Source: Coriobacteriia bacterium
GTDB taxonomy: Bacteria > Actinomycetota > Coriobacteriia > Anaerosomatales > SLCP01
Assembly (NCBI GenBank): GCA_007121015.1
Contig: SKMN01000003.1
Span: 4,413 to 68,412, forward strand
Direction of reading: 5' to 3'
Length of the DNA stretch: 64,000 bases
Part shown: positions 4,282-45,133 of the stretch, piece after piece
Position numbering within the stretch: position 1 is the first letter of the stretch
Layout: the number at the start of each line of letters is the position of its first letter
Made by a program: the position numbers and the translations under genes
The notes under the pieces: generated by a model
What the model was told of the DNA's origin: nothing
The model's input: only the letters and a program-made list of their open reading frames with translations
The model's database searches: none

Positions 4282-4357
4282 GCCCCCGTAGCTCAGGGGA
4301 TAGAGCACAGGTTTCCTAAACCTGGTGTCGCACGTTCGAATCGTGCCGGGGGCACCA
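4282..4357 (+). tRNA. tRNA-Arg (anticodon CCT)
   Basis: 76-nt cloverleaf: acceptor GCCCCCG/CGGGGGC, D arm GCTC-AGGGGATA-GAGC, anticodon stem CAGGT/ACCTG with loop TTCCTAA, T arm GCACG-TTCGAAT-CGTGC, discriminator A and an encoded CCA. Confidence 0.95.
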
Positions 4358-7057: not shown

Positions 7058-7067
7058 CAGCTCTCCC

Positions 7068-8054: not shown

Positions 8055-8085
8055 GAAGGGCCTCCTTGCGAGGGGTTGTAGGACG

Positions 8086-8688
8086 CTAGTCGGCGGCCAC
8101 CGGGCGGCGCAGGTGGATCTCGTCGCGGGACGGGATGCCCGAGAACCCGGCGACCGAAGCGCCGGCTCGGTCGGCGAGCACGCCCACGGCGAGGTCGTAG
8201 ATGACGAACCCGTGGCGCTGGTAGAAGTAGAGGAGCGGGATGTCGTCGTTGGACACGGCCACGCGGATCCCCGGCAACCCGCGCTCGCGCGCGAACTCGA
8301 CCGCCGAGCGCAGCAGCGCGGCGCCCACGCCCTGCCCCTGGTACTCGGGGTAGACGGAGAGCAGGACGACTACGAGCTCGCCCCGGTCGATCGCGAGCGA
8401 GAGAAGACCGGCGAGCTTGCCGTCGGCATCCGCGATGAGATTCTCGCCCGCGAGCACGTCGAACGTGCGGTCGAAGACGTCCACCTCGGTCTCGCCGAGC
8501 GCCCGATCGCAGATCTCCTCGATGTCGTGACGGTCGCCGGCACGTGCGGTGCGCACGGCGAACGCGACGCTGTCGGGCGCCTGGTGTTCGGCACACGTCA
8601 CCGTCATGCGCGCCTCGTTGAGCGGCAAGTCTTTGCCGCACGTGGGGCAGCGGTACTGCGGATATGGGAGATCGAAGTCGTCGACCAT
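8086..8688 (-). CDS. GNAT family N-acetyltransferase with N-terminal zinc-ribbon-like segment
   Basis: N-terminal CPTCGK...TCAEH is followed by a GNAT core with the acetyl-CoA motif YQGQGVGAALL and the ...YFYQRHGF tail. Confidence 0.75.
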   Translation of the reverse strand: MVDDFDLPYPQYRCPTCGKDLPLNEARMTVTCAEHQAPDSVAFAVRTARAGDRHDIEEICDRALGETEVDVFDRTFDVLAGENLIADADGKLAGLLSLAIDRGELVVVLLSVYPEYQGQGVGAALLRSAVEFARERGLPGIRVAVSNDDIPLLYFYQRHGFVIYDLAVGVLADRAGASVAGFSGIPSRDEIHLRRPVAAD

Positions 8689-28267: not shown

Positions 28268-28343
28268 TGGAGCGGGCAACGGGTCTCGAACCCGCGACCT
28301 ACAGCTTGGGAAGCTGTCGCTCTACCAACTGAGCTATGCCCGC
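28268..28343 (-). tRNA. tRNA-Gly (anticodon CCC)
   Basis: On the minus strand: GCGGGCA-TA-GCTC-AGTTGGTA-GAGC-G-ACAGC-TTCCCAA-GCTGT-AGGTC-GCGGG-TTCGAGA-CCCGT-TGCCCGC-T-CCA. The cloverleaf is canonical, the discriminator is U and CCA is encoded. Confidence 0.95.
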
Positions 28344-31287: not shown

Positions 31288-31698
31288 ATGATCAAGCTCA
31301 TCCAGCTCTACCTGCTCACCACGGTCGTGTTCTTCGCGATCGACATCGTATGGCTCGGCGTGGTGGCGAACCGCTTCTACCAGGCGCAGATCGGCCCGAT
31401 GCTCAAGTCGCCACCCGACTGGTTCGTCGCCGCCGGGTTCTACCTCTTCTACATCGTAGGCATCCTCGTATTCGCCGTCCTTCCCGGAGCCGAGAAGGGC
31501 GTCTTGCTTGAGGCGGTGTGGCGCGGTGCGCTCTTCGGCGCTCTCGCGTACGCGACGTACGACCTCACCAACCTCGCAACCCTGAAAGACTGGCCGTGGC
31601 AGGTCGCGGTCGTCGACATCGCATGGGGCACCGTGCTCACCGGGTCCGTCGCGGCAGCGGGCTACGCGTTCGCCCGCTGGCTCGACATCGGCGCCTAG
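31288..31698 (+). CDS. DUF2177 family membrane protein
   Basis: MIKLIQLYLLTTVVFFAIDIVWLG...YATYDLTNLATLKDWPW is typical of DUF2177, with four TM segments. Confidence 0.65.
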   Translation: MIKLIQLYLLTTVVFFAIDIVWLGVVANRFYQAQIGPMLKSPPDWFVAAGFYLFYIVGILVFAVLPGAEKGVLLEAVWRGALFGALAYATYDLTNLATLKDWPWQVAVVDIAWGTVLTGSVAAAGYAFARWLDIGA

Positions 31699-34433
31699 GT
31701 CAGCTGCGCCGACTTCCCCTTCGCCTCGCGCCTGCGCATGGCTATCTTGAACAGCTCATCGACGAACATGACCGAGGACCCGACCGCGAGCGCCACGCCC
31801 CACTCGCCCGCGCCGATCGCGGTCGTGCCGAACACGGCCTGTGCGGGAGCCCAGTAGAGTACGACGGCCTGCAGGACTGCGGCGAGCGAGATGCCCGCGA
31901 GGAGCAACTTGTTGCCGAGCGGGTTCATCCGGAAGACCGAGATCGTCATCGAACGGGTCGATACCGCACGCCACCACTCGAAGCATACGAGGGTCGTGAA
32001 CGCCATCGTCTGGCCCATGACGTGACCGTACTCCGCCTCGTAGTAGTTGAACACCGAGAGGGTACCGATGGCGATGACCGGCGCCAGCGTGAGCACGCGC
32101 GCGCCCATGACCTTCGTGATGATGCCTTCTCTTGGAGGACGCGGCGACTGCGCAAGGACGTCGCCGTGCTTGGGCTCGAGGCCGAGCGGCAGCACGCTCA
32201 CGCCGTCGGTCACGAGGTTGACCCACAGGATCATGATCGCCGTGAACGGCAGCGGGAAGCCGAGGACGAGTGCCGCGGTGATGGCCATGATCTCACCGAG
32301 GTTCGTGGTGATGAGGAACATGACGACGCGCCGCAGGTTGCCGAAGATGACCCTACCGTGTTCGACCGCCGCGACGATGGTCGCGAAGTTGTCGTCGGTC
32401 AGGATCATGTCCGAGGCTTCCTTGGCGACCTCGGTACCGGCGATGCCCATCGCCACGCCGATATCGGCCTGCTTGAGAGCTGGCGCGTCGTTCACGCCGT
32501 CACCGGTCATCGCGACGATCTCGTCGTGCGTCTTGAGTGCACGCACGATGCGCAGCTTGTGCGAGGGAGTCACGCGTGCGAAGACGGCGATGCCGTGCAC
32601 GCGCGCTTCGAGTTCCTCGTCATCCATGTCGTCGAGGTCGGCACCGGTGACGCTCTCCGCCTGCTCGTCGAGGATACCGACCTTCCTGCCGATGGCGGCG
32701 GCGGTCGCGGCGTGGTCCCCGGTGATCATCTTGACGTCCATGCCCGCCTTGTGTGCCGCCGTTATGGCTTCGATCGCCTCGGCGCGTGGCGGGTCGAGGA
32801 GTCCCCAGAGTCCGACGAACACGAGACCGCTCTCGACCTCGGAGCGGCTCGCCTCCTCCGTGCCGTCGACGCGCTTGTACCCTCCGGCCACGACACGCAG
32901 CGCATCATCGGCGAACTGCTCGGCGGTGCGCTCGATCTCTTTGCGCATCTCGTCGTCGAGCTCGCGCTCCTCACCGTCGATGAGTACGCGGTCGCTGAAG
33001 TCGAGGATGCGCTCGAACGCGCCTTTCACGTGGAAGGTCGTCGCCGAACCGCCACGATCGAGGGTCGCCATGTACTTGAACTTGCTCGCGAACGGCAGCT
33101 CATCGACACGCTCCAGTTCCGAGTCGAGGTCGGCGCGGTGGATGCCGCGCTTGTGCCCTGCCGCAAGCAGCGCACCCTCGGTCGGGTTGCCCTCGATGCG
33201 CCACCGACCCTCCTCCTGCTCGAGGGTGGCGTTCGTAGCGATGCAACCGATGCGCAGGAGTGTGTCGAGTTCCGCCGTGCCCTCGCCCTCGTCGGGCAGC
33301 TCCGACTCGTCATCGTACGTGATCTCCCCGGTAGGGTCGTAGCCCTCCCCTGTCGCACGGAAGATGCGGCCACCCGCCCACATCCGCGTCGCCGTCATCT
33401 CGTTGCGAGTGATCGTTCCGGTCTTGTCCGAGCAGATGACCGTGGTCGAGCCGAGTGTCTCGACCGCGGGCAACCTGCGGACGATCGCGCCCCGTTCCGC
33501 CATGCGCTGCACGCCGAGGGCGAGCACCACGCTGATGACTGCGGGAAGTCCTTCCGGGATGGCGGAAACGGCCGCCGCCACCGAGAAGAGCAACATCTCG
33601 TAGAGCTCTTCTCCGCGCGTGTAACCGATGGTGAAGATGATGGCCGCCAGCGTGACCGCGGCGATCCCGACGTAGAGACCGAGGCTCGCCAAGCGACGCT
33701 GCAACGGCGTCTCCATGCGCCCGGTGGCCTGCACTTCTCCGGCGATCTCACCGATGATGGTATTCATGCCGGTCGCTACGACGAGCGCCTTGCCACGCCC
33801 GTCGGTCACACTCGTCGACGACCACACCATGTTGCGCCGGTCTGCAAGCGCGGTCTCCTCGTCGAGGCGTTCCGAGAACTTGCCGACGGTCTCCGACTCG
33901 CCGGTCAGCGCCGACTCGTCCACTCTGAGCTCGGTCGATTCCATGAGGCGCGCGTCCGCCGCGGCACGGTCGCCTGTCTCGAGCAAGAGGATATCGCCAG
34001 GCACGATGTCCTCGGCGGGTATCACCTCGACCTCGCCGCTGCGGATCACCCGCGCACGGGGAGCCGCCATCTTTCGCAGCGCTTCGAGCGTCTTCTCGGC
34101 CCGCCACTCCTGCGACACGCCGATGAGCGTGTTGAACACGATGACCGCGAAGATGACTCCCGCATCGATCAGGTGGTCGGCCCACACGCTGATGGCGACC
34201 GCGGCGAAAAGCAGGTAGATGAGCGGGCTCTTGATCTGCTTCACGACGAGGCCGAGGACGGACACGCCTCCCTCGTCGGATAGCGCGTTCGGACCGTGTT
34301 CCTCGAGCCGTCGTTCCGCGTCTTCCGCAGAGAGACCTTCTTGCGCGGTCCCGAGCTCCTCGCGCACCTCATCGATGGGCATGGCGTGCCACGGCGTCTG
34401 CTTGTCGGCGGCGTCTCGTGGTGTCGTGGACAT
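31695..34433 (-). CDS. cation-transporting P-type ATPase (P2 type, Ca2+/Mg2+-ATPase-like)
   Basis: 912 aa with TGES, the phosphorylation site [20 protein letters not shown] and [17 protein letters not shown], plus 10 predicted TM segments. Confidence 0.9.
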
Positions 34434-34742: not shown

Positions 34743-37364
34743 GTGCGGCCCACCGATCCGTCGCCCGATCCGGTTCAAGTCAGGGCCGGAACGGGCCGAT
34801 ACAACGGTGAAGGGGACGAAACCGCGGTTGCGGTCGATGTCTCTACGTGCACGCGAAAGGGGGATTGTCGGCCCGTGCCGCTCGACCAGCGACTGATCGA
34901 GCTCATAGGAACCGTCCACGACGTAGCCCCCGACGCAATAGTGTGTGTCGATTCCGACCTACGCATCGTATACGCCAACGAGGCCGCGACGCGCAGGGCT
35001 CGTGCATGTCGCGAAGACCTCATCGGCATGGCGTGTCACGACGCGATGGCGGGCCACGACATACCCTGCAGCGTGTGCCGGGCACGTGAGTCCTTCAGCA
35101 CCGGCATGAGCCTCACTCACCGGGGCCCGACCGGTCCCGGGGACACCGGCGACACCATCGAACGCACCTGGCACCCCATCCGCGACGAGACCGGCACGGT
35201 GCTCTGCGTCCTCGAGCAGATACACGTGGTCGACGCTCCGACGGACCCATCGGAGCCCACGCCCGAATGCGTCGCAGGCCACAGTCCGTGCGACTACATG
35301 GACACGACACCCGCGATCCTGCTCACCCTCGACCGCCAGGGCCGCATCACGCTCATCAACAAGACCGGCTACGAACTGCTCGGCGTGACCGAGGCGGAGG
35401 CGATCGGACGACGGCTCGTCGAGGACTTCGTCCAGACATCCGAGCGTCACGAGTGCACGCTGCACTTCGACGCGATCCTCGAGGCCGAAGCTCACGAGAT
35501 CGAACCGTGCGAGAACACCATCGTGCGCCCCGACGGGACGCAGCGGGTCATCGAATGGCACGCGACGGCGCTACACGATGACGACGGCACCGTGAACGGC
35601 ATCGTCGCCTCGGGCGTCGACGTCACGCGACGCAAGACTGCCGAATCCGAGCTGGTCTTCCATTCGTGGGTACTCGACCAGGCGAACGATTCCGTAATCG
35701 TCCACACGCCCGAGGGGTCGCCCGTGTACGCCAACGCGCGCGCCTGCGCGATGAGCGGCATGACCCGCGAAGAGCTCCTCGATCTCGAGCCGTTCGGCTG
35801 GCTGGCCGAGGACCACCGTTCGCTCCCGGACGCGGTACAAGAAACGCTCGCGTCCACGGGCTCCGCGATCTACGAGACGCTCTACCTCACCTCCAACGGC
35901 ACACACGTACCGGTCGAGGTACACGCGACGGCGATGGACGCCGATGGCCGCACCCTCATCGCCTCGGCGGGCCGGGACATCTCCGAGCGCAAGCGTGCCG
36001 AGCAGGCCATGACACGCCTCGCCTTCTACGACTCGCTCACCGGCCTGGCGAACCGGGCCCTCTTCCTCGACCGCCTCCGGCACGCCTCGGCGACCAAGGC
36101 GCGGGCGGGCGAGCGGCTCGCCGTGGCCTTCATCGACCTCGACCACTTCAAGACCATCAACGACACGCTCGGGCATCGGACCGGCGACGCGGTACTCGTC
36201 GAGGTCGCCCAGCGGCTCGCCGGTTGCCTGCGCGAGGCCGACACGCTCGCGAGGCTCGGTGGCGACGAGTTCACCGTACTCCTCGAAGGCGTCCAGTCGG
36301 AGCGCGACGCGGAGCTCGTGGCCACGAAGCTCATGGAGGCGCTGCAGGCCCCCCTGCGAGTCGCGGGCAACGAGATCCATCTCACCGCGAGCATCGGTGT
36401 CGCGCTCGGCGCCCCGGGCGACTCCGAGGACTCGGCAGCGCTCCTCGCACGAGCGGACACTGCGATGTACCGCGCGAAGCAGGGTGGCCGAGCGACGTAC
36501 TGCCTTCACGAACAGACGTATTCGGAGGACGCGTGCGAGCGCCTCGTCCTCTCGCGCGACCTCCACCATGCCCTCGAACTCGACGAGCTCGACGTCCATT
36601 TCCAGCCGATCGTACGCGTCGAAGACGGTCTTTTGAGCGGAGTCGAGGCGTTCGTGAGGTGGAACCATCCGTCCCTCGGCCCGGTGTCACCGGCGACGTT
36701 CCTCCCCATCGCCGAGGAGACCGGTCTCATCTCCAACGTGGGCGACTGGGTGCTCGAGGCCGCCGTCGAGCGGTTCGCGGGATGGCGCGCGAAGGGACTG
36801 CGTTCGGGGGTCCGTCTCACCGTCAACGTCTCCGCTCGCCAGCTCGCTACCGCAGGGCTGGCCGACCGCGTAGCCGCACTGCTCTCCGCGCACGGTATCG
36901 CCGGCGAGAACATCGAGTTCGAGGTGACCGAGGGCACCATCATGCACGAGACGGGGCTGGCCCGCGAGACGCTCGCCGCCCTCCGGGAGTTCGGGGTGCG
37001 CACCTCGATCGACGACTTTGGAAGCGGGTACTCGTCGCTCGAACAGATACTCGCGCTCAGCATCGACACCATCAAGATCGACCAGCACTTCGTCCGGGGG
37101 CTCGGGCGCAACGTGCAGGCGACCGCGATCTGCAGAGCGGTCATCTCGATGGGCGACCAGCTCGGACTCACCGTGGTCGCCGAAGGCGTCGAGACCCGGG
37201 TGCAGGCAGCCTGCCTGCGGGCCGAAGGGTGCCCGGAGATGCAAGGCTATCTCGTGAGTCCACCACTCCCCTCATCGGCGGCCGAGGCGCTGCTCACACG
37301 CGACTCTCTCATCCACTGGCGCACCCGCACTTCCGACCCCGACGTCGCTCGAGCGCCGCGCTGA
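34743..37364 (+). CDS. multi-PAS diguanylate cyclase/phosphodiesterase (GGDEF + EAL)
   Basis: Several PAS/PAC segments are followed by GGDEF (RLGGDEFTVLL, with RxxD-like LRHAS upstream) and an EAL domain (GVEAFVRW, DDFGSGYSSL, KIDQHFV). The true start may be GTG 34875. Confidence 0.85.
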   Translation: MRPTDPSPDPVQVRAGTGRYNGEGDETAVAVDVSTCTRKGDCRPVPLDQRLIELIGTVHDVAPDAIVCVDSDLRIVYANEAATRRARACREDLIGMACHDAMAGHDIPCSVCRARESFSTGMSLTHRGPTGPGDTGDTIERTWHPIRDETGTVLCVLEQIHVVDAPTDPSEPTPECVAGHSPCDYMDTTPAILLTLDRQGRITLINKTGYELLGVTEAEAIGRRLVEDFVQTSERHECTLHFDAILEAEAHEIEPCENTIVRPDGTQRVIEWHATALHDDDGTVNGIVASGVDVTRRKTAESELVFHSWVLDQANDSVIVHTPEGSPVYANARACAMSGMTREELLDLEPFGWLAEDHRSLPDAVQETLASTGSAIYETLYLTSNGTHVPVEVHATAMDADGRTLIASAGRDISERKRAEQAMTRLAFYDSLTGLANRALFLDRLRHASATKARAGERLAVAFIDLDHFKTINDTLGHRTGDAVLVEVAQRLAGCLREADTLARLGGDEFTVLLEGVQSERDAELVATKLMEALQAPLRVAGNEIHLTASIGVALGAPGDSEDSAALLARADTAMYRAKQGGRATYCLHEQTYSEDACERLVLSRDLHHALELDELDVHFQPIVRVEDGLLSGVEAFVRWNHPSLGPVSPATFLPIAEETGLISNVGDWVLEAAVERFAGWRAKGLRSGVRLTVNVSARQLATAGLADRVAALLSAHGIAGENIEFEVTEGTIMHETGLARETLAALREFGVRTSIDDFGSGYSSLEQILALSIDTIKIDQHFVRGLGRNVQATAICRAVISMGDQLGLTVVAEGVETRVQAACLRAEGCPEMQGYLVSPPLPSSAAEALLTRDSLIHWRTRTSDPDVARAPR

Positions 37365-37399
37365 CGTCCGCCGGAGCGTTGCTCGCTGCCGCCATCGCG

Positions 37400-38242
37400 T
37401 CACGGGACCGCGGTCAACGCCACAGCGACCAACGCTCCGGCGACACCCGCGCGCTGCAGCCACCGCAACCGCTCGCCCAGCACGAACCGTGCGAGCAGTA
37501 CGACGACGATCGGGTAAAGAGAGCCGAGCACCGCTGCCACGGCAAGCGGCCCGATGCGGATGGCCGTCAGCATCGTGATGCTCGCGCAACTGTCGAACAC
37601 CCCTGCCATCAGAGTGGCGCGCCGCGCCTCCGGTGTGACGAACGGAGTGCCGCTGCGCGCTGTCGCGAGCGCCGCGAGCAGCGTGACCGAGACGACACGG
37701 GCGCCGACGAGCGGCCACAACCCGCTCGCGAGCGTCGTGTTCGCGAGCGCGAGGAACGAGCCGGCGAACCCCACACCCGCGACGAGTGCGAGCGGGACGG
37801 CGCTCGGTTTGGTCACCACGCCGTCATCGGCACTGGGCGCCGCGGTCACCACGATGATCGCGACGAGTGCGAGCACGACCCCGATGCCGGTGGTCGGACC
37901 GAGCGGGGTGCCCCTCGCCACATCGATCGTCGCGGGGATGGCTCCGGCGAGTGCGGCGGTCATCGGTGCGACGACACTCATCCGCCCGCGCGCGAGCGCC
38001 GCGTAGAGCGCCACGACCCCGATACCTCCGCTCACGCCCGCGAGCGCACCCCACCCGATGTCCGGCCACACGCCACCGGTCGCACCGATCGCCGCCGACG
38101 CCGCCGCGAGGATGACGAGCCCGAGCATGTGCGAGGTCGCCGTGACCGACACGGCCGAATCGCGCTTGCTCGCAAACCCGCCGAGGAAGTCAGCGCACCC
38201 AAAGAGCGCCGATGTCGCTGTCGCCAGGAGTGGGGTGATCAT
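37400..38242 (-). CDS. EamA/DMT family transporter
   Basis: Ten hydrophobic segments form two EamA-like halves. The start is uncertain (ATG 38242, or 38314 as in the ORF track). Confidence 0.7.
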   Translation of the reverse strand: MITPLLATATSALFGCADFLGGFASKRDSAVSVTATSHMLGLVILAAASAAIGATGGVWPDIGWGALAGVSGGIGVVALYAALARGRMSVVAPMTAALAGAIPATIDVARGTPLGPTTGIGVVLALVAIIVVTAAPSADDGVVTKPSAVPLALVAGVGFAGSFLALANTTLASGLWPLVGARVVSVTLLAALATARSGTPFVTPEARRATLMAGVFDSCASITMLTAIRIGPLAVAAVLGSLYPIVVVLLARFVLGERLRWLQRAGVAGALVAVALTAVP

Positions 38243-38378
38243 GTGTGTCCAACCGCTGCCTCCGGGATGACCGCTCCCGATGATACACCTCACGAGCCTT
38301 GCGGGCCGCTGCATGACGGCTAGGCCGGGAGGGGAACACTCTTCAGTGAAGCTGTCCGTTCAGGTTCGGAGGTGACCG

Positions 38379-39305
38379 ATGGCCCGACCGAGTGATACCG
38401 GCCGGTTCGACATCGTGGTGATCGGGGCCGGGCCCGCGGGCCTGACCGCGGGCATGTACTGTGCCCGCCAGGGACTGGCGACCGCGGTGGTGGCCGGCGA
38501 GGTCGGCGGTCAGGCGGGGTGGGCCGGCAAGATCGACAACTACCTCGGCTGGCAGGCGATAACCGGTCCCGAGCTCGTGGCCGCGTTCCGCTCGCACGTC
38601 GCGCAGTTCGGCGTCGCATGTTACGAAGGTCGGCTCGTCAACGCGATCGTGCCCGAGGGCGAGGGGTTCGACGTGTTCACCCGCGAAGGGGACACCCTTC
38701 ACGCGTGGGCGCTCATCGTCGCGACGGGCAAAGCACCCAACCGCCTCGCCGTGCCTGGCGAGACCGAGTTCATCGGCCGAGGAGTGTCGTACTGCGCCAC
38801 GTGCGACGCTCCGTTCTTCGCCGACCTCGACGTCGCCGTCATCGGCCCGGGGGAGTCGGCCGCCGACGCGGCGCTGCAGCTCGCCGCGATCGGCGCCCGC
38901 GTGACCCTCATGACCAAGCGGCCGCTCAAAGCGCCCGAGGTCCTCCGCGGCAAACTCGAAGCGGAGCAGCACATCTCCGTGCAGGAGGGTGCGACCGTCA
39001 CGCGCATCGTGGGGGAGGACTCCGTGACGGGAGTGGAGTTCACGACAGGCGACGGCGAGGAGGTGCTTCCGGCGGCAGGCGTGTTCATCGAGACCGGGGC
39101 GATCGCAGCCGCCGACTTCACGGCGGGGCTCGTCGAGGTCAACGAGGAAGGAGAGATCGTCGTCGACCGGCGATGCGCGACGAGCCATCCGGGCATCTAT
39201 GCGGCGGGTGACGTGACAGACGGCCTCGGCAAGCAGGTCATCATCGCTGCCGGCGAGGGGGCCCGCGCGGCCGTGGCCGCCGGTAAGGACCTGAAGAGGA
39301 GATGA
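38379..39305 (+). CDS. thioredoxin-disulfide reductase-like FAD/NAD(P) oxidoreductase
   Basis: FDIVVIGAGPAGLTAG, the redox motif CATCDAPFF, a second dinucleotide fold VAVIGPGESAADAA and C-terminal YAAGDV are present. Confidence 0.8.
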   Translation: MARPSDTGRFDIVVIGAGPAGLTAGMYCARQGLATAVVAGEVGGQAGWAGKIDNYLGWQAITGPELVAAFRSHVAQFGVACYEGRLVNAIVPEGEGFDVFTREGDTLHAWALIVATGKAPNRLAVPGETEFIGRGVSYCATCDAPFFADLDVAVIGPGESAADAALQLAAIGARVTLMTKRPLKAPEVLRGKLEAEQHISVQEGATVTRIVGEDSVTGVEFTTGDGEEVLPAAGVFIETGAIAAADFTAGLVEVNEEGEIVVDRRCATSHPGIYAAGDVTDGLGKQVIIAAGEGARAAVAAGKDLKRR

Positions 39306-40150
39306 GGGGCGTGAGCGAGCGGACCGGGCGGACGGCGACGCGCGTCGCAGCCGCGACGGCCGTGGCGGCTGTCATCGCCGGTGCGGGATACGCGTTCACG
39401 ACGGCCCTCGTCATGCCCCTGCAAGACGCCCCGGAGTGGCTCGTCACCCGCCCTATCGCACACCGTGGCCTGCACACGGACGATTCCCGCGTCCCGGAGA
39501 ACTCAATGGCGGCATTTCGCGCCGCCGCCGATGGCGGACATCCCATCGAACTCGACGTGCACCTGTCCGCCGACGGCATCGCAGTCGTGTTCCACGACGA
39601 CACGCTCGAACGGATGACCAGTGATGCACGGGCGATCGGCGAGTTGACGACGGACGAACTCGCGCGAGTGCGCCTCCTCGACAGCGACGAACATATACCG
39701 ACGCTGGCGGAGGTGCTCGCACTCGTGGAAGGACGCGTGCCGATGCTTGTCGAGATCAAGCAAAGAGGTGACGTAGGCGCCCTCGAGCAGGCGGTCCTCG
39801 ACGATCTGGCAGCCTACCCCGGCGAATACGCCATCCAGTCGTTCAACCCGTTCTCGCTCGCATACGTGCGCCGCGCCGATCCCCGCATCGTCCGCGGGCA
39901 ACTCTCGGGCACGTTCTCCGAGGAGGACCTGCCCGCATGGCAGGTCTTCGCCCTGCACAACCTGCTCCTCAACTGGACGAGCAGACCGGCGTTCATCGGG
40001 TTCGAGATCGAGGCTCTGCCGACCTGGGGAACGTCGCTCCAGCGCGCTCGGGGCCGTCCGCTCATCGGATGGACCGCAGACGACCCGGAGTCGTTCGAGC
40101 GTGCGCAGCACCTGTGCGACGGGATCATCTTCGACCCCGGCGCGTTCTAG
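39302..40150 (+). CDS. glycerophosphodiester phosphodiesterase family protein (membrane anchored)
   Basis: IAHRGLH...PENSMAAF...IELDVHLSADGIAVVFHDDTLERMT are the GDPD catalytic motifs. There is an N-terminal TM, and the gene overlaps the upstream gene by ATGA. Confidence 0.8.
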   Translation: MRGVSERTGRTATRVAAATAVAAVIAGAGYAFTTALVMPLQDAPEWLVTRPIAHRGLHTDDSRVPENSMAAFRAAADGGHPIELDVHLSADGIAVVFHDDTLERMTSDARAIGELTTDELARVRLLDSDEHIPTLAEVLALVEGRVPMLVEIKQRGDVGALEQAVLDDLAAYPGEYAIQSFNPFSLAYVRRADPRIVRGQLSGTFSEEDLPAWQVFALHNLLLNWTSRPAFIGFEIEALPTWGTSLQRARGRPLIGWTADDPESFERAQHLCDGIIFDPGAF

Positions 40151-40176
40151 CCCGGTCGCACGTACGACCGGGCGCA

Positions 40177-40647
40177 CTAGCGCCTGAGGGTCGCCACCAG
40201 CCGTCTCGGGTCGACCAGCAGCCCGAGTGCGTCCGCGATCGAGGTGACGACGACGTCTGCCGCGCTCACAGCGGCCCCTGCAGCCCCTTCGGGGCCCACT
40301 ACACACACGCCGATGGCCGCCTCGGTGAGCATCCCCACGTCGTTCGCACCGTTCCCCACCGCCACGACCCCGCTCGCACCGAGGCGTCTGACGAACGCGG
40401 TCTTCTGGGAGTCTTCCATCCCCGGCTCGATGATCTCGACCGAGATCCCTAGCCGTGCAGCGGTCCGGGCGGCCGTGCCGCGGGTATCCGCTGTGATCAT
40501 CCAGACGGTCACGTCTCCTCCGAAGGTCTCCACGCCCTCGGCCACGCCGTCGACGAGAGAGCCATCGACCGAGATGGTGCCGTTGACATCGAGCACGACG
40601 TGCTCGATGGATATCGTACCGGTACCGGGAACATCTACGTCGATCAT
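40177..40647 (-). CDS. HAD-superfamily hydrolase (soluble P-type-ATPase-like, COG4087 type)
   Basis: 156 aa. LDVNGTIS (DxxGT-like) and VAVGNGANDVGML match the HAD/P-type ATPase hinge motifs. Confidence 0.65.
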   Translation of the reverse strand: MIDVDVPGTGTISIEHVVLDVNGTISVDGSLVDGVAEGVETFGGDVTVWMITADTRGTAARTAARLGISVEIIEPGMEDSQKTAFVRRLGASGVVAVGNGANDVGMLTEAAIGVCVVGPEGAAGAAVSAADVVVTSIADALGLLVDPRRLVATLRR

Positions 40648-40830
40648 GTCCGCCCCTCATCCGTTTTCGCATATATGTTCGCACATCGTATGGCCTGAAA
40701 CACCCGGGCGCGATACGATGGCGTATGTGTGGCGTTGACACCGTACGGGGGTCGGCACATAATCGACGTGTGTTCGGAAATGTTCCTATCTAGCAAGACG
40801 TTCCAGCAAGCGGCAGGAGGCGGCCCGATC

Positions 40831-41259
40831 ATGATCGACAGGGATGTGGCGTTCGAGCGCATACGCGAGGCGGGGCTGCGTCTCACCCCCCAGCGACGCG
40901 CGGTCATCGAGGAGCTGTCCGGGGACCGTTCTCACCCGCTCGCCGAGGACGTCGCGTCCCGTGTCGCCATGCGCGTGCCGGGAGTTTCGCTCTCGACGGT
41001 CTACAAGATACTGCACGAGCTGGGCGATCTCGACCTCATTCGCGAACTGTCGCTACCCGGCGCGATGCGCTTCGACCCCGACACCGAGTCACACGCGCAC
41101 CTGGTGTGCCCCGAGTGCAACGATATCATCGACGTCCCCCTCGATCCGGCGACGACCGACGTGCTGTCCGGCGCCGCGGAGAAGGCCACGGGAGCCGACG
41201 TCTCTCACATGGAGATCACACTGTACGGCACGTGTGCCGCATGCGGTCCCCGCGCCTGA
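40831..41259 (+). CDS. Fur family transcriptional regulator
   Basis: LRLTPQRRAVIEEL...STVYKILHEL is a winged helix. HAHLVCPECNDIIDV and LYGTCAACG are the metal sites. The start is at ATG 40831 after AGGAGG. Confidence 0.85.
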   Translation: MIDRDVAFERIREAGLRLTPQRRAVIEELSGDRSHPLAEDVASRVAMRVPGVSLSTVYKILHELGDLDLIRELSLPGAMRFDPDTESHAHLVCPECNDIIDVPLDPATTDVLSGAAEKATGADVSHMEITLYGTCAACGPRA

Positions 41260-43577
41260 CACGGGCACGGATCGCCGCCGAACTCCTCGGGGCCGACCCT
41301 GTCCCCTGGCTCCTCGCATCCGACGAACCGTACACGCGCTGGGTGACGCGCACGGAGATCCTCGGCGAACCGCCCGATTCGACCGCGGCTGCCGACGACC
41401 ACGAGGCACTCCTCGGGGATCCCGGTGTCCGTGGGCTTATCGAGACCCTCCCCGCGTGGGACGCGATCGCAACTGCCCCGGACCATCACAGTCCCGCGTT
41501 CCTGCCCAATCGCCTCAACCTCCTTGCCGACCTCGGTGTCCAGGGAGGTGACGACACCCGTATCGAGTCCCTCGTCGACGTGCTGCTCGCGCACCAGGAC
41601 CGTCACGGCCGCTTCACGTCGGCCGAAGCGGACGGCGGCAGACCCAAGCCCGAATCCGGGGCGGTGCTCTGCGACACCAACGTGATCGCCGATGTCGCCC
41701 TCCGGTTCGGCAGAGGCGACGACCCGCGCGTGAAGTCGGCGCTCGGGCGGATGCGCTCCGACCTCGCGACGACGCCTCAAGGCAAGGCGTGGCAGTGCGT
41801 CCCCGAGCGACGACCATTGCTCGCAGGCGTCTTCAGCAAGGCCGAAGTCTGCCCGCAGATCACCCTCGAGGGGCTCCGCGCGCTCTCCCGCGTGCATCCG
41901 CCCGGCGAGCGTCCGGCGTGGCTTCTGGAGGCGGCCCGCACCCCCCTCGCGGTCTGGCGAAAGCGCACCACCGACCGCCCGTACGGGTTCGGTCACGGCT
42001 ACCAGTTCAAGAGCGTGAAGTGGCCGAACTTCTGGTACGACGTGCTGTGGGTCCTCGAAACGGTAGGGAGGTACCCCGAGGTCTGGAGCGGATCGCGGTC
42101 GACCGCCGAGGACCGCCGCGCCGCCGCCGAGCTCGCTGCGTGCCTGATCGCCTACAACTTCGACGATGACGGGCGTGTCACGCCCAAGCGCGTGTACCCG
42201 GGCTTCGAGCAGTTCTCGTTCGGCTGCAAGACCGGGCCCTCCCCCTTCGCGACCGCTCGCTGCTTCGTGACGCTCACACGATTCACCGACCTTGCCGAGG
42301 AGATCGCGGGGGTCGACGTCGGGGCGCTCCCCGGCTCCGTCGGGGGCACCGGTGCCCCGGTCCCTCCGCGCCGTGCCACTCCGCCGTGCCCGACGCCGAC
42401 GCGCGTATCGACCTTCTCGACAGCGCGCGCGGTCATCCGGGTACTCGCCCGTCACCACCTCGGCATGGTGTGGGAACCAGCGACCATCGACACGATCGTC
42501 GGCGACATCGTCGGCGTCCAAGCCACCGGCCCCACGATCCCGTACTTCGCGCTCCACGCTCGCCTTCCCGAGACTCGTGTCGCCGACCTCGACTCCGCTC
42601 TCTACGAACGTCGCTCCCTCGTGCGCATCCGCTGCATGCGCGGGATGGTCTACGTGGTCCGCACAGACCTTCTCCCGGTCGTGTTCGCCGCAACCAACGC
42701 CGCGGTATCGCGCTACGCGCGGACGTACGCAGCGTTCCGCGGGGTCAAGGGAACCGATTACGAGCGGGTAGCCGAGCAGATCTGCACGCTCCTCAGCGAG
42801 CGGGGTCCGCTTACCACCGCGGAGATGCGAGACGAGCTCGACGTGTCGCTCGACGTGGCTGCGACGGTGAACCTCATGTCCGCCGAGGGCCGGCTGCTCA
42901 GAGACCGTCCGGTGGGCGGATGGCTCGACCGCCGCACCACGTACGTGCCGCTCGCCGACGCGCTCCCCGGCGTCCGGCTCGACTCCGTCCGCCAGGGCGA
43001 CGCCGACATCGCCCTCGTGCGGGCGCACGTCCGCGCGTTCGGCCCGGTCCTCGCCGAGGATACCTCGTGGTGGACGGGCCTCGGCCGCAAACGCACCGCC
43101 CGGGCGCTCCTCGCCCTCGGCGACGAGGTCGTGACGGTACGCCTGACCGACAGCGAGGGCGAGTTCCTCGCGCACGCCGCCGACGTCGACGAGCTCGCCG
43201 CGACCGGTGCTGCACCGAGCCCCGCGGTCGCCCTGCTGCCCGCCCTCGACCCGCTCGTGTCGGGCTACGCGCGCCGCGGCAGGTTCGTCGAAGACGCACG
43301 TCGCCCCTACGTCTTCGATCAGGCGAGCCGCGTCACCTCGGTCGTGCTCATCGACGGGCGTATCGAAGGCGTATGGGACATCGCCACCGAACCCGAGCCG
43401 GCGATACGCGTGCACCTTCTCGGCGAGGAGCGCCCGTCATGGCACGAGGCGGTCGAGGCTCACGCGAAGGAGGCCGGAGAGGTCCGCTTCGGGGCAGGCG
43501 TTCCGGTACGGTGGGTCGAGACGATGCAGCCCCTCATCGACCGCGCTCAGGGCGCGGTGTTCAAGCCGCTGCGCTGA
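41241..43577 (+). CDS. 779-aa fusion protein: N-terminal ~390-aa domain of unknown function + C-terminal winged-helix HTH_42/DUF1006 (AlkZ/YcaQ-like) domain
   Basis: It is a single uninterrupted frame. The C-terminal half has the HTH_42 family pattern (VGVQATGP, IRCMRGMVYVV, LLPALDPLVSGY, IDGRIEGVWDI). The N-terminal half has Q-x-x-x-G-x-F-like repeats (LLAHQDRHGRF), which weakly suggest an alpha/alpha toroid. The ATG overlaps the fur 3' end by 19 nt. Confidence 0.65.
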   Translation: MRSPRLTRARIAAELLGADPVPWLLASDEPYTRWVTRTEILGEPPDSTAAADDHEALLGDPGVRGLIETLPAWDAIATAPDHHSPAFLPNRLNLLADLGVQGGDDTRIESLVDVLLAHQDRHGRFTSAEADGGRPKPESGAVLCDTNVIADVALRFGRGDDPRVKSALGRMRSDLATTPQGKAWQCVPERRPLLAGVFSKAEVCPQITLEGLRALSRVHPPGERPAWLLEAARTPLAVWRKRTTDRPYGFGHGYQFKSVKWPNFWYDVLWVLETVGRYPEVWSGSRSTAEDRRAAAELAACLIAYNFDDDGRVTPKRVYPGFEQFSFGCKTGPSPFATARCFVTLTRFTDLAEEIAGVDVGALPGSVGGTGAPVPPRRATPPCPTPTRVSTFSTARAVIRVLARHHLGMVWEPATIDTIVGDIVGVQATGPTIPYFALHARLPETRVADLDSALYERRSLVRIRCMRGMVYVVRTDLLPVVFAATNAAVSRYARTYAAFRGVKGTDYERVAEQICTLLSERGPLTTAEMRDELDVSLDVAATVNLMSAEGRLLRDRPVGGWLDRRTTYVPLADALPGVRLDSVRQGDADIALVRAHVRAFGPVLAEDTSWWTGLGRKRTARALLALGDEVVTVRLTDSEGEFLAHAADVDELAATGAAPSPAVALLPALDPLVSGYARRGRFVEDARRPYVFDQASRVTSVVLIDGRIEGVWDIATEPEPAIRVHLLGEERPSWHEAVEAHAKEAGEVRFGAGVPVRWVETMQPLIDRAQGAVFKPLR

Positions 43578-45133
43578 GACACCGGCAGGACGAGCGTGAA
43601 CACGGCGCCCCCTGAAGGACTCGGGCCGACCGTCAACCCGCCTCCGAGCATCTCTGCGAGCCGGCGGGATATCGCCAGTCCGAGTCCGGTCCCGGGACTC
43701 TTCGCGAGGCGGGGATCGGGGCCCTGGTAGAACGTTTCGAAGATGTCCTCGTAGGAGTGGGGCGGGATGCCGATGCCGGTGTCCGCGACGGAGACCTCGA
43801 CCCGCTCACCGTCCCGCGCATCGATCGTCACCGTCACAGCGCCCTCTTCGGTGAACTTCACCGCGTTGGACAGGAGGTTCAGGAGGATCTGCTTTACCTT
43901 GGCGGGGTCGGTATGGATCCTCTCCGGGGCACCGGCGCCGCTACGGACGTCGAGCGCGAGCCGCTTCTCGAGAGCCATCGGGCGCACGGTGTCCACGCAG
44001 CCCCGCACGAGCACTGCCAGGTCCACCGGCTCGGTCATGACGCGCTCGACGCCCGCCTCGATGCGGGAGAGGTCGAGCATGTCGTTGATGAGTACGAGCA
44101 GGTGCTTGCCGGACGCGTTCACCATGGCGAGCTGTTTCACCTGCTCATCGTTGAGTTCCCCCGCCATCCCCCGGAGCATGATGTCGGTGAACCCGATGAT
44201 CGAGTTCAACGGGGTCCGTAGCTCGTGGCTCATCGCCGCAAGGAACCGGTCCTTGGCCTCGGTGGCGGCCTGGAGGCCGAAGTTCGCGTGCTCGAGCTCT
44301 AGGGTCCGCTCCTCGACGAGGCGCTCGAGGTCGTCCCGGTACGCACTCAGCTCAGCCTCGGCCTCCTTGCGCTGACCGATCTCCTGGTTCAGCATCACGT
44401 AGGCGCGCTCGATCTCGTCGGCCATCTCGTCGAACGCGTGCGCGAGTTCGGCCACCTCGTCAGACCCGCTCGTGATGCCGGTCCGGTACGACAGGTCTCC
44501 GCCGCCCAGACGGACAGCGGCGGTCTGAAGGTCGATGAGCCTGCGAGTGACATCGCGCTCGGTCACCACTGCATTGACGAACACCGCGATCATCCCGAAC
44601 CCGGCCACTACCGAGGACGCCACGATGATCGCCAGCATCGTGGCAAGCACGTGCCGGCTGGTCTCGTCCCCGAGGGCCACGAGCTTCGTCACCATCTGCT
44701 GCATCTCTATGAGCATCTGCGCGGCAAGCCGCTCCCGGTATTCCCGCGACACCTGCTCGGCTGCCGCCCCGGTGACGACCTCGTCTCGCGCCTCGACCAA
44801 CCGCTCGAACATCTCTCCGACGCGGCGGTAGTTGGCGAGCAGTTCTAGGGATCGCAGTGCGTCGGGGTCCTCGGCGAGAATCGATTCGAGGTCGACTTCG
44901 AGCGCGGCGTACTTCCCGCGCCACTGCCGCTCGGCGCGCGGCTCGAGATTCATGACGAAATCGGTCGTGAGCATCGAGAGCTCGAAGGCTCCATTAAGGG
45001 ACCCGGCGATCCGGTCGTTCGTCCGCACGGCCGACCTGAGCTCGAAGAACCCTCCGGCAACCACGACCACGAGCGTCACGGCTACAAGAGCCATGGCGAC
45101 GCTGCCGAGGCGGATGCGCGTCGCGGCTCTCAC
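43547..45133 (-). CDS. sensor histidine kinase (TM - sensor region - HAMP - HisKA - HATPase_c)
   Basis: H-box AMSHELRTPLNSIIGF, N-box LLNLLSNAVKFT, and DTGIGI / GTGLGLAI are present, with two TM segments flanking a ~150-aa extracytoplasmic region. Confidence 0.9.
   Translation of the reverse strand: MRAATRIRLGSVAMALVAVTLVVVVAGGFFELRSAVRTNDRIAGSLNGAFELSMLTTDFVMNLEPRAERQWRGKYAALEVDLESILAEDPDALRSLELLANYRRVGEMFERLVEARDEVVTGAAAEQVSREYRERLAAQMLIEMQQMVTKLVALGDETSRHVLATMLAIIVASSVVAGFGMIAVFVNAVVTERDVTRRLIDLQTAAVRLGGGDLSYRTGITSGSDEVAELAHAFDEMADEIERAYVMLNQEIGQRKEAEAELSAYRDDLERLVEERTLELEHANFGLQAATEAKDRFLAAMSHELRTPLNSIIGFTDIMLRGMAGELNDEQVKQLAMVNASGKHLLVLINDMLDLSRIEAGVERVMTEPVDLAVLVRGCVDTVRPMALEKRLALDVRSGAGAPERIHTDPAKVKQILLNLLSNAVKFTEEGAVTVTIDARDGERVEVSVADTGIGIPPHSYEDIFETFYQGPDPRLAKSPGTGLGLAISRRLAEMLGGGLTVGPSPSGGAVFTLVLPVSQRSGLNTAP

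Follow-up and report, generated by a model that had tools for sequence, protein, structure and literature searches.

A conserved fusion of a predicted α/α toroid with an AlkZ-like HTH_42 domain, encoded in overlap with a PerR-like regulator gene in a Coriobacteriia bacterium

The overlapping gene pair and its upstream region

The window analyzed here, a 64,000-nucleotide stretch of a Coriobacteriia bacterium contig, carries a Fur-family regulator gene that overlaps a long ORF encoding two fused domains, a predicted α/α toroid and an AlkZ-like HTH_42 domain (Table 1). The regulator gene opens with an ATG at 40831 behind a Shine-Dalgarno sequence (AGGAGG, 40815-40820) and closes with a TGA at 41257-41259; the fusion ORF runs from an ATG at 41241 to a TGA at 43575-43577. 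These coordinates confirm the 19-nt overlap reported in an earlier note on this DNA, which had put the product at 779 aa, a figure that is right for codons including the stop and one too many for the protein. The note had also described the ORF as lacking a Shine-Dalgarno sequence of its own, and indeed no purine-rich sequence of this kind precedes the ATG at 41241. From this ATG up to the first residues conserved in homologues there is no alternative in-frame ATG, GTG or TTG. Three contigs besides that of the window keep the 19-nt overlap: an independent gene caller picked the identical overlapping start in two of these related contigs, and the junction is kept in the related locus L005.

Table 1. 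Features of the gene pair and its products (window coordinates)
Feature	Coordinates	Strand	Basis or remark
Sigma-70-type promoter-like site TTGACA-17-CATAAT	40735..40763	+	11/12 matches; upstream of regulator
Conserved leader block	40774..40822	+	palindrome, then GTTCC...AGCAAG repeats; candidate operator
PerR-like Fur-family regulator gene, 142 aa	40831..41259	+	PF01475, E 1e-21
Fusion gene, 778 aa	41241..43577	+	start 19 nt inside regulator gene
Predicted α/α toroid domain, residues 1-378, unnamed family	41241..42374	+	AF2 model, Foldseek, conservation
H82	41484-41486	+	conserved pocket candidate, toroid
C144-D145	41670-41675	+	conserved pocket candidate, toroid
C186	41796-41798	+	conserved pocket candidate, toroid
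C204-P205	41850-41855	+	conserved pocket candidate, toroid
K260	42018-42020	+	conserved pocket candidate, toroid
K330...S334	42228-42242	+	conserved pocket candidates, toroid
Pro-rich junction, residues 379-395	42375..42425	+	Cys383 in CP(V/T)P at 42387-42398
AlkZ-like/HTH_42 domain, residues 396-778	42426..43574	+	PF06224, E 2e-47
Clade-specific D422	42504-42506	+	AlkZ-like domain
Motif Q427-A-T-G430	42519-42530	+	AlkZ-like domain
RCMRG block	42630-42644	+	AlkZ-like domain
AZL2-branch D693	43317-43319	+	AlkZ-like domain

The promoter-like site is the only one in 40100-43900 (1 found, 0.2 expected); its -35 hexamer is kept in the related locus L086 and diverged in L005/L087. A search of the interval between regulator and fusion gene for a terminator-like site found none. 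Co-transcription of the two genes, as suggested in the earlier note, is plausible, given the conserved overlap, the lack of a terminator-like site between them and a promoter-like site found in front of the regulator alone. Of the non-coding DNA compared between the window, L005, L086 and L087, the leader block is the part most strongly conserved. An imperfect 7-1-7 palindrome within it, TCGGAAAtGTTCCTA at 40774-40788, is good in three of the four sequences and degraded in L086; allowing ≤1 mismatch, the window has a single copy. We infer that this block is a candidate operator for autoregulation; TCGGAAAtGTTCCTA is GC-richer than the Per box of B. subtilis. A regulon-wide operator was also considered and rejected, as the exact motif is missing upstream of the other fusion genes and the window has a single good copy. 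Within ±10 kb of the fusion gene lie transporters, signaling genes and housekeeping genes, and no biosynthetic cluster.

The regulator matches the Fur-family model PF01475 at 77.5 bits (cut-off 23.1). Its top NCBIfam models are PerR models, for which it stays under the equivalog cut-off (90.4 bits vs 180), and its closest PDB chain is B. subtilis PerR (2fe3, E 5e-23; other Fur-family chains 2e-15 or weaker). Residues H35, D82, H88, H90 and D101 align with the five regulatory-site residues of PerR, H37, D85, H91, H93 and D104, and two CxxC pairs correspond to the structural Cys4 zinc site of PerR. The regulator thus resembles the peroxide-sensing PerR type rather than the iron- or metal-uptake Fur implied by the earlier description of a metal-regulator-linked fusion, and peroxide sensing is predicted for it.

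A conserved two-domain family

Full-length fusion homologues of 770-800 aa fall into more than 100 sequence clusters, so that the ORF is far beyond chance; single-ORF fusions occur at 28 loci, including 24 GTDB species genomes, mostly Coriobacteriia metagenome-assembled genomes (MAGs). Mean column identity across an alignment of 88 fusions is 51%. The two-domain family to which the 778-aa product belongs is conserved and occurs chiefly in Coriobacteriia and other Actinomycetota. A misassembly, a frameshift or a merged gene call could be suspected from a single sequence whose ORF lacks its own Shine-Dalgarno sequence, given that high GC content yields long spurious ORFs and that one relative, L002, has a split C-terminal domain. 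We give such an artifact practically no credence and reject it on comparative evidence: the same continuous ORF recurs in the 24 species genomes and in the >100 clusters, whose sequences come from independent assemblies, an invariant Cys and a conserved PxPP/CPxP pattern mark the junction itself, and at none of the loci surveyed were the two halves found as adjacent separate genes. The fusion is therefore uninterrupted and genuine, as had been claimed. A survey for adjacent halves, which had been recommended as a check, used phmmer and a diverse HTH_42 profile at 57 standalone toroid loci and found none there or beside the nearest standalone HTH_42 genes.

The linkage to the regulator is a different matter. 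Outside the window it was seen in L005/L086 and L087 alone, relatives at ≥81% identity, and a Fur-family neighbor is missing at 20+ other fusion loci and at all standalone toroid loci. This narrow distribution rules out the linkage as a trait of the fusion family, and with only a handful of close relatives sharing it, it may be incidental synteny. All-vs-all clustering of ORFs at 83 loci yielded no informative conserved neighbor; what it grouped were overlapping-frame artifacts and families found everywhere, ABC ATPases and histidine kinases among them.

Standalone toroid proteins stop just before the junction, and standalone HTH_42 relatives begin just after it. Cys383 is fusion-specific and invariant (88/88 fusions). 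Model confidence drops at residues 381-385 (pLDDT <50), and the full-length model has a pLDDT of 91.3 but a pTM of 0.60, so that its inter-domain geometry carries no confidence. The models are consistent with a junction that acts as a flexible tether.

The toroid and HTH_42 domains

Residues 1-420 match no Pfam or NCBIfam family, as the earlier note had anticipated for the N-terminal half. Searches of Pfam (53 family members, E up to 10), NCBIfam, PADLOC anti-phage defense models and PDB profiles returned no match for the domain, 10 distant family members gave no above-threshold Pfam match, and the source names of family members are all 'hypothetical protein'. The AF2 model of the domain (pLDDT 88.7, pTM 0.87) finds its best Foldseek matches in squalene-hopene cyclase (SHC), MstE, drimenyl-PP synthase, GH76/GH105 and a2M TED (E ~3e-3, TM ~0.4). 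All of the best PDB matches are α/α toroids, with SHC first (E 2.8e-3). The model thus places the N-terminal half with good confidence among the α/α toroids of the terpene-cyclase fold class, and a toroid guessed earlier from the repeats is borne out by the ranking of SHC and class II terpene cyclases as best matches. The toroid is an autonomous domain: the family comprises 933 representatives at 50% identity (E≤1e-3), is widespread in MAGs of Actinomycetota, Chloroflexota, Deinococcota and Bacillota, and has mostly standalone members, some 370 aa long. A standalone gene is present at 56 of 80 genome loci and at L001, and a profile search covering ±6 kb around these loci found neither an HTH_42 nor a Fur ORF.

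The likeness to class II terpene cyclases extends to QW-like repeats, LxxxQxxxGxF (115-125) and NFDDDGRV (306-313), and, by eye only, to a helix N-terminus at which L-C144-D145-T-N-V-I of the toroid resembles V-D376-D377-T-A-V-V, a stretch confirmed in the SHC sequence. The similarity is nevertheless one of fold class only, with 11-15% identity at the TM and E values given above. SQHop_cyclase_N/C and Prenyltrans profiles found no match among the 53 toroid members at E up to 10; one distant member has a sub-threshold SQHop_cyclase_C match (E 0.007, 15.9 bits vs a cut-off of 26.1). The DxDD general-acid motif was not found in the toroid, where the look-alike L-C144-D145-T places a conserved Cys at the acid position. 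The terpene cyclase cavity is built from an acid and aromatic residues, whereas the toroid conserves a Cys/His/Lys/Ser set.

Eight residues, H82, C144, D145, C186, C204, K260, K330 and S334, are conserved throughout the family; among its distant members of ~325 aa, conservation at these positions is still 91-100%. The conserved residues sit at or just before the helix starts at 88, 143, 205, 268 and 335. Successive helical hairpins carry them at their N-terminal ends, so that they probably line one space, and this helix periodicity suggests a central Cys/His pocket. Zinc toroids of the LanC, prenyltransferase beta and GH127 types were considered for the Cys/His set and set aside, since the 50 best fold or sequence matches include none of them. 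No metal-binding family is among the toroid matches.

The C-terminal half was correctly read as HTH_42: PF06224 matches residues 421-723 at 162.8 bits (cut-off 25.9), and the peptides quoted in support are all present. The domain resembles Streptomyces sahachiroi AlkZ (5uuj) in sequence (phmmer E 3e-7) and fold (Foldseek E 9e-15, TMt 0.78), as well as DNA-bound E. coli AlkX/YcaQ (9zd6, TMt 0.70-0.72). Foldseek places in it the fold of three winged helices and a C-terminal β-barrel, and the MRG, FGP, WW, LxxxDP and DGRxxGVW blocks are shared with both enzymes. Identity in the structural alignments is 17-19%, however, and both enzymes are single-domain proteins, AlkZ adjoining a biosynthetic cluster and YcaQ having a conserved neighborhood of its own.

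The catalytic motif is where the domain departs from these enzymes. AlkZ GVQAQ aligns with GVQAT in the window, so that neither the AZL motif (Q/H)-phi-Q nor the YQL motif Q-phi-D is found; the QxQ of AlkZ or QxD of YcaQ is replaced by QAT(G). The reading of VQAT in the earlier note was right, but its comparison with AlkZ and YcaQ was the wrong one. In the nearest standalone HTH_42 relatives the motif reads H-A-T-(S/G/N); one tier further out (~30% identity) it reads H-A-T-D, the AZL2 motif, which makes Thr the normal residue. The deviation lies instead in Gly430 for Asp/Glu and Gln for His. Measured against the AZL2 motif H-phi-(S/T)-(D/E), the window's Q-A-T-G has the Thr and misses the acid.

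HATD proteins score 85-113 bits with the domain and QAQ/HAQ proteins 55-86 bits, and the domain probably belongs to an AZL2-related branch of HTH_42. With the AZL2 clade (Bradley et al., mBio 2022, PMC9040887) it shares PF06224, the winged-helix and β-barrel fold, the (V/L)FD693 signature common to the HATD tier, and, in common with YQL genes also, a location outside biosynthetic clusters. It differs in lacking the motif Asp/Glu, in a motif that is not kept across fusions, in the fusion-clade substitutions D422, P434, R464 and G468, and in the added 378-aa toroid and Cys-bearing junction. D422 is Asp in 87/88 fusions and in the nearest standalone relatives that lack the motif acid, whereas the HATD tier has Ala at this position and both AlkZ and YcaQ have Arg. 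D693 was rejected as a compensating acid because the HATD tier has it too.

Across the 88 fusions, motif position 1 is H/Q in 49, position 3 is Q in only 3 and D in 1, and position 4 is D/E in 22. Only 4 combine the two polar elements of a published motif of any kind, and 18 have neither; 70 have H/Q at position 1 or an acid or amide at position 3 or 4. In variability, columns 427, 429 and 430 exceed 84%, 74% and 98%, respectively, of the columns of the C-domain, and 11 Arg residues of the domain are conserved at ≥90%. In published AZL proteins it is the motif that is conserved and the remainder that diverges (PMC13303869). The earlier suggestion of altered catalysis is thus plausible in view of a motif so poorly conserved across the clade, although most members keep one of the two polar residues.

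A proposed role and its alternatives

We propose that the HTH_42 module targets DNA or DNA lesions while tethered to an autonomous toroid with a Cys/His pocket, and that the protein is peroxide-induced in this clade; we put the probability of this whole reading at about 0.4. The pocket would be a Cys3-His metal or reactive-thiol site beside a Lys/Ser anion-binding patch, and the flexible Pro-rich junction with Cys383 would tether it to a complete, AZL2-related HTH_42 domain. Because the fold and a set of conserved arginines are kept, this domain has most likely retained the ability to bind DNA or DNA lesions. Base excision of the canonical AlkZ/YcaQ type is doubtful, since the catalytic motif is not under selection; at most, a relocated carboxylate, D422, might support it. 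In the likeliest model, the module would bring the conserved chemistry or ligand binding of the toroid to DNA or damaged DNA. The fusion gene would follow the PerR-like regulator gene as second cistron of one operon; its translation probably depends on that of the upstream gene it overlaps, and peroxide stress would be expected to induce the two together.

It is also possible, and only somewhat less probable, that the protein is an active AZL2-type monofunctional DNA glycosylase for alkyl or crosslink lesions, with the toroid as an accessory module for adduct or base binding, oligomerization or partner recruitment. The complete HTH_42 fold with its strong Pfam match, the HATD motif of the nearest wider relatives, and the excision of 7mG by an AZL2 protein with a non-canonical motif (PMC9040887) all accord with such an activity. 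Q427 is kept in the window, as H/Q is in more than half of the fusions, and D422 and the AZL2-tier D693 could provide a carboxylate. Cationic N7-alkylpurine lesions, moreover, require little catalytic help, and AlkZ QxQ mutants lose their unhooking activity only partly (PMC7367128). NCBI, too, already gives some fusion members the name 'AlkZ family DNA glycosylase'. Weighing against a glycosylase are the motif columns, which are among the most variable of an otherwise well-conserved domain, the scarcity of fusions with both polar elements and the sizable group with neither, and the missing acid in the window protein. The strongest invariant signal of the protein, moreover, is the toroid Cys/His set together with C383, which an accessory role leaves unexplained.

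A one-component regulator, in which the toroid pocket would respond to a metal, a small molecule or the redox state, and transcription would be controlled through binding of specific DNA by the triple winged helix, would suit the order of a ligand-type domain followed by winged helices, the conserved cysteines (including junction C383) as a redox switch, and the plausible co-transcription with a PerR-like regulator in the window clade. We consider it unlikely: the HTH_42 literature covered describes repair glycosylases or the Lhr C-terminal domain and no sequence-specific transcription factor, the 28 fusion loci share no conserved divergent target gene or neighborhood, and most toroids are standalone proteins, near whose genes no DNA-binding partner was found. 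A bolder and similarly improbable extension of our proposal would make the toroid an unrecognized enzyme family, a ring like that of terpene cyclases in which the general-acid position now belongs to a Cys3-His metal or thiolate center, the catalytically degenerate AZL2-type domain serving only as a lesion reader that feeds it bulky or crosslinked adducts, with induction by a PerR-type peroxide sensor in this lineage. If true, this would be a new, non-glycosylase form of DNA-adduct processing, such as thiol-dependent removal or transfer involving Cys383.

HTH_42 is a recently recognized DNA glycosylase class with roles in interstrand crosslink unhooking and in self-resistance to genotoxic natural products, and its multi-domain forms have explicitly been called understudied (PMC9040887). 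The main one described so far is the C-terminal HTH_42 of Lhr helicase, which is reported to occlude its own DNA surface and so counts against taking DNA binding by the present domain for granted. Like the window protein, Lhr joins HTH_42 to another large module and lacks a canonical QxQ; here, however, the partner is an α/α toroid without helicase motifs rather than a DEAD-box/SF2 helicase, and HTH_42 follows it directly via a short linker. Neither the family libraries nor the literature searched yielded a description of a toroid-HTH_42 architecture, in agreement with the earlier impression that it is apparently undescribed. These data define a sizable conserved architecture that current annotation masks as 'AlkZ family DNA glycosylase' or 'winged helix protein', because the N-terminal domain has no Pfam or NCBIfam model, and bring to light an unnamed α/α-toroid family of ~900 clusters with a conserved Cys/His/Lys/Ser set. 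With a canonical catalytic motif that has drifted on a scaffold that stayed conserved, the fusion clade offers a natural test of the motif's real contribution and of HTH_42 domains as lesion readers.

Authenticity and spread of the fusion

The gene pair recognised from the sequence holds in its coordinates and at its junction: a Fur-family ORF shares 19 nt with the fusion ORF, which has no SD-like purine run ahead of its ATG and no alternative in-frame start between 41241 and the first homologue-conserved residues. This junction, including the ATG and TGA, is kept in L005, the closest related locus, and in two related metagenome contigs an independent gene caller picks the same overlapping start. 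All of the peptide strings quoted in the earlier note are found in the translated protein, which has 778 residues rather than the 779 then counted. A 736-aa antisense ORF (41205-43415, −) lies opposite the fusion gene and an 885-aa ORF of alternate-frame/antisense type lies at 35666-38323, both without a family match; such very long ORFs are by-products of the window's ~69% G+C and form spurious clusters in all-vs-all comparisons.

PF06224 (AlkZ-like) covers residues 421-723 of the fusion protein (E 2e-47), residues 1-420 have no Pfam match, and neither half is matched by NCBIfam. Used as a query, residues 1-420 retrieved 169 relatives, most of them standalone proteins of ~370 aa without a Pfam domain and a few of ~730 aa with PF06224. 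A GTDB scan of one genome per species, followed by six-frame ORF analysis, gave 80 loci: the toroid stands alone in 56, and in the other 24, all among the closest relatives and mostly from Coriobacteriia, Anaerosomatales and unclassified Actinomycetota MAGs, it shares a single ORF with the AlkZ-like part. The full-length query returned more than 100 clusters (90% identity) of 770-800 aa each, one of them identical to the window protein; NCBI names some of these fusions 'AlkZ family DNA glycosylase' or 'winged helix DNA-binding domain-containing protein'. An alignment of 88 fusions has a mean column identity of 51% and an invariant Cys in the junction. Because the same ORF recurs in so many clusters and in 24 species genomes with a conserved junction, an assembly or frameshift artefact is excluded for practical purposes, its probability being close to nil, and the fusion is a genuine single protein. 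The suggestion that its halves might occur elsewhere as adjacent genes yielded no instance: no separate HTH_42 gene adjoins the standalone toroid genes (phmmer and a diverse HTH_42 profile including AlkZ and YcaQ), and no separate toroid gene adjoins the nearest standalone HTH_42 genes.

Standalone toroid proteins stop directly after a conserved tail, VDVxxLxSSKGGTGxPxPP(K/R), and the nearest standalone HTH_42 proteins start at an RxLxRHHL helix. Between these two elements the fusions insert a flexible linker of 15-25 residues that is specific to them, including an invariant CP(V/T)P whose cysteine, C383, is kept in 88/88. The full-length model has a pLDDT of 91.3 and a pTM of just 0.60, with the junction segment below pLDDT 50, so that the relative orientation of the two domains is undefined. 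Two relatives depart from the common layout. On the metagenome contig L002 (6001-8521) the HTH_42 part is split into overlapping ORFs of 684 and 170 aa, both with PF06224, owing either to a sequencing error or to a frameshift that has made the gene a pseudogene. The 1059-aa protein P0169 (JGI, 5.8-kb contig) carries PF01855, the N-terminal part of pyruvate:ferredoxin oxidoreductase alpha, besides the toroid and PF06224; one more fusion or the merging of gene calls would account for it.

The toroid and the HTH_42 domain

An AlphaFold2 model of the N-terminal domain, built on a 53-sequence alignment (pLDDT 88.7, pTM 0.87), predicts an all-alpha domain with short beta-hairpins after every second helix. 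Foldseek searches of the PDB returned alpha/alpha toroids exclusively: squalene-hopene cyclase ranked first (2sqc, E 2.8e-3, TMq 0.40), ahead of the type II terpene cyclase MstE, drimenyl diphosphate synthases, GH76/GH105 hydrolases and the alpha2-macroglobulin/complement thioester domain; the predicted likeness to terpene cyclases and other toroids is one of fold class only. The earlier reading of this half as unmatched to any family, with QxxDGxW-like repeats, agrees with this prediction: the repeats are present (QDRHGRF at 119, NFDDDGRV at 306) and fit the QW-type motif of the fold class. Neither a profile search of PDB sequences nor Pfam, run on each of the 53 members with E allowed up to 10, yielded anything consistent, and PADLOC gave no match. 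When 1.84 billion representatives were searched exhaustively with the family profile, 933 proteins matched at E<=1e-3, 141 of them at E<=1e-30, including a more distant tier of ~325 aa that likewise lacks a family name and whose sole match is one sub-threshold SQHop_cyclase_C. At one locus (L063, 5872-8190) a second, divergent paralogue (ORF 7168-8190; E 8e-8 against the N-domain of the fusion) comes directly after a standalone toroid gene, a tandem duplication within this unnamed family.

Across the close and distant tiers, H82, C144, D145, C186, C204, P205, K260, P262, K330, S334 and T338 are 91-100% conserved. In the model, conserved residues lie at or just before the helix starts at 88, 143, 205, 268 and 335, positions that are equivalent in successive hairpins and spaced by ~60 residues. 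Because such positions in a toroid face one mouth of the ring, we infer a single central pocket with a Cys3-His site and a Lys/Lys/Ser patch. The invariant L-C144-D145-T-N recalls D376-D377-T-A of squalene-hopene cyclase when matched by eye; on this visual match the toroid has Cys where the cyclase, whose sequence was verified, has its general-acid position.

The C-terminal domain retains a complete HTH_42 fold, with Foldseek matches to AlkZ (5uuj, E 9e-15, TMt 0.78) and to DNA-bound AlkX/YcaQ (9zd6, TMt 0.70-0.72). HMMER pairs the G-V-Q-A-Q of AlkZ with G-V-Q427-A-T429 of the fusion. Published motifs are Q-phi-Q or H-phi-Q for AZL, Q-phi-D for YQL and H-phi-(S/T)-(D/E) for AZL2, of which an active member has 7mG as a substrate (PMC9040887). 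The nearest standalone relatives (34-43% identity) have L-H-A-T-(S/G/N); the ~30%-identity tier (n=24) has H-(A/G/S)-(T/S/A)-D, mostly the AZL2 motif L-H-A-T-D; more distant relatives have QAQ or HAQ. This succession suggests that Thr429, once taken as a sign of possible catalytic alteration, is ancestral and normal for the branch; the window protein departs from it in the missing acid, replaced by G430, and in Gln for His.

Among the 88 fusions, position 427 is H in 29, Q in 20, T in 13, N and P in 6 each and V in 4; position 429 is T in 50, A in 9 and I and G in 5 each; and position 430 is S in 22, D in 15, H in 10, T and E in 7 each and A in 6. These columns exceed 84%, 74% and 98%, respectively, of C-domain columns in variability, whereas D422, P434 and Y435 on either side hardly vary. 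Of the 88, 45 retain H/Q at motif position 1 alone and 21 an acid or amide at position 3 or 4 alone; 4 have both polar elements and 18 have neither. Whereas in published AZL proteins the motif is conserved and the remainder diverges (PMC13303869), here the motif varies within an otherwise conserved domain. Eleven arginines at least 90% conserved are consistent with retained nucleic-acid binding. D422 occurs specifically in the fusions and in those nearest relatives that lack the motif acid (most of the ~30%-identity tier has Ala and both AlkZ and YcaQ have Arg), making it a candidate relocated carboxylate. D693 was rejected as a compensating residue because that tier has it too.

The regulator gene and its surroundings

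Features of the fusion locus and its surroundings, in window coordinates
Feature	Position	Strand	Remarks
tRNA gene	4282-4354	+	Rfam
tRNA gene	28271-28343	−	Rfam
P-type cation ATPase gene	31695-34433	−	upstream of fusion
PAS-GGDEF-EAL signalling protein gene	34743-37364	+	upstream of fusion
EamA transporter gene	within 37400-40647	−	
Thioredoxin-reductase-like flavoprotein gene	38379-39305		
GDPD phosphodiesterase gene	39302-40150		4-nt overlap with flavoprotein gene
HAD-like protein gene	40177-40647		156 aa; divergent from PerR-like gene
Promoter-like site	40735-40763		TTGACA-17-CATAAT, near-consensus; sole one in 40100-43900
Imperfect 7-1-7 palindrome	40774-40788		within conserved leader block; good in 3/4 related sequences
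Fur-family (PerR-like) ORF	ATG 40831 to TGA 41257-41259	+	142 aa; AGGAGG at 40815-40820
Fusion ORF	ATG 41241 to TGA 43575-43577	+	778 aa
HAMP-HisKA-HATPase histidine kinase gene	43547-45133	−	convergent with fusion gene; stop at 43547-43549

The upstream regulator, named simply as Fur-family before, does match PF01475, and its type is PerR-like: its best NCBIfam models are PerR, with scores below their cut-offs, and its closest solved relative is B. subtilis PerR (E 5e-23; other Fur-family chains 2e-15 or weaker). Its H35, D82, H88, H90 and D101 pair with H37, D85, H91, H93 and D104 of PerR, and both CxxC pairs are found. Sensitivity to peroxide is associated with Asp, rather than Glu, at the last of these positions.

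Between the two genes there is no terminator-like site, and the best-conserved non-coding block of the region lies directly 3' of the promoter-like site. Upstream of that site, in the intergenic region between the divergent HAD-like and PerR-like genes, an 11-nt inverted repeat (40684-40720; CATCGTATGGC / GCGATACGATG, 15 nt apart) is partly conserved in the related locus L086. Besides the window, L005/L086 (84% identity) and L087 (81%) have the regulator and fusion genes joined by an identical overlap of 19 nt. None of the fusion loci at <=64% identity and none of the standalone loci has this pair, so the linkage is a lineage-specific arrangement and not a family hallmark. Co-transcription and translational coupling, as first suggested, are the simplest reading within this lineage. 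On that reading the fusion gene would belong to an autoregulated operon that probably responds to peroxide.

Within ±10 kb, besides the protein-coding genes tabulated, lie genes for an NMT1-like binding protein, arginine deiminase, TrkH and an ABC transporter; this interval has no biosynthetic-cluster or mobile-element signature, and the fusion family as a whole shows no conserved neighbour. The EamA, flavoprotein, GDPD and HAD-like genes are syntenic in L005 and L086 and may constitute a redox-stress neighbourhood; the HAD-like gene recurs in L087, and near P0004, a fusion with 54% identity, there are likewise EamA genes and an HAD-like gene of 156 aa. The PAS-GGDEF-EAL and ATPase genes are ordinary chromosomal context. 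The 3' ends of the histidine kinase and fusion genes overlap by 31 nt (4 nt in the L086 pair), and the two tRNA genes are the sole Rfam gathering-threshold matches in the window. Elsewhere, on the P0399 contig (JGI 3300056388, 6798-8568), one of the nearest standalone HTH_42 relatives (motif HATG) has a GyrI-like gene in convergent orientation after it; the GyrI-like family has been linked to the binding or hydrolysis of genotoxic natural products.

Possible functions of the fusion protein

We propose, with a probability of about 0.4, that the fusion is a tethered two-module protein that joins toroid chemistry or ligand binding to a DNA- or lesion-targeting HTH_42 module. The autonomous toroid, with its putative conserved Cys/His pocket, would hold the selected chemistry or ligand binding. 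In the AZL2-derived HTH_42 module the fold and the basic residues would survive while the canonical catalytic motif is no longer conserved, which makes DNA or lesion targeting likelier than canonical base excision. It is also credible, if short of probable, that the protein is an active AZL2-type glycosylase with the toroid as an accessory: mutants of the AlkZ motif are only partly impaired in crosslink activity (PMC7367128), so the fusion may act as a glycosylase in spite of its variable motif. A role as a one-component sensor or regulator seems to us unlikely.

The Fur/PerR family, the family of the C-domain and the fold class of the toroid are already known; the particular toroid family has no name. 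No description of the toroid-HTH_42 fusion was found in Pfam, NCBIfam, PADLOC, the PDB or the searchable literature, and the published survey of multi-domain HTH_42 proteins mainly names helicase fusions. The functional roles set out here are predicted and resolve no long-standing question; the fusion is a solid, testable lead for specialists in DNA repair and enzyme discovery.
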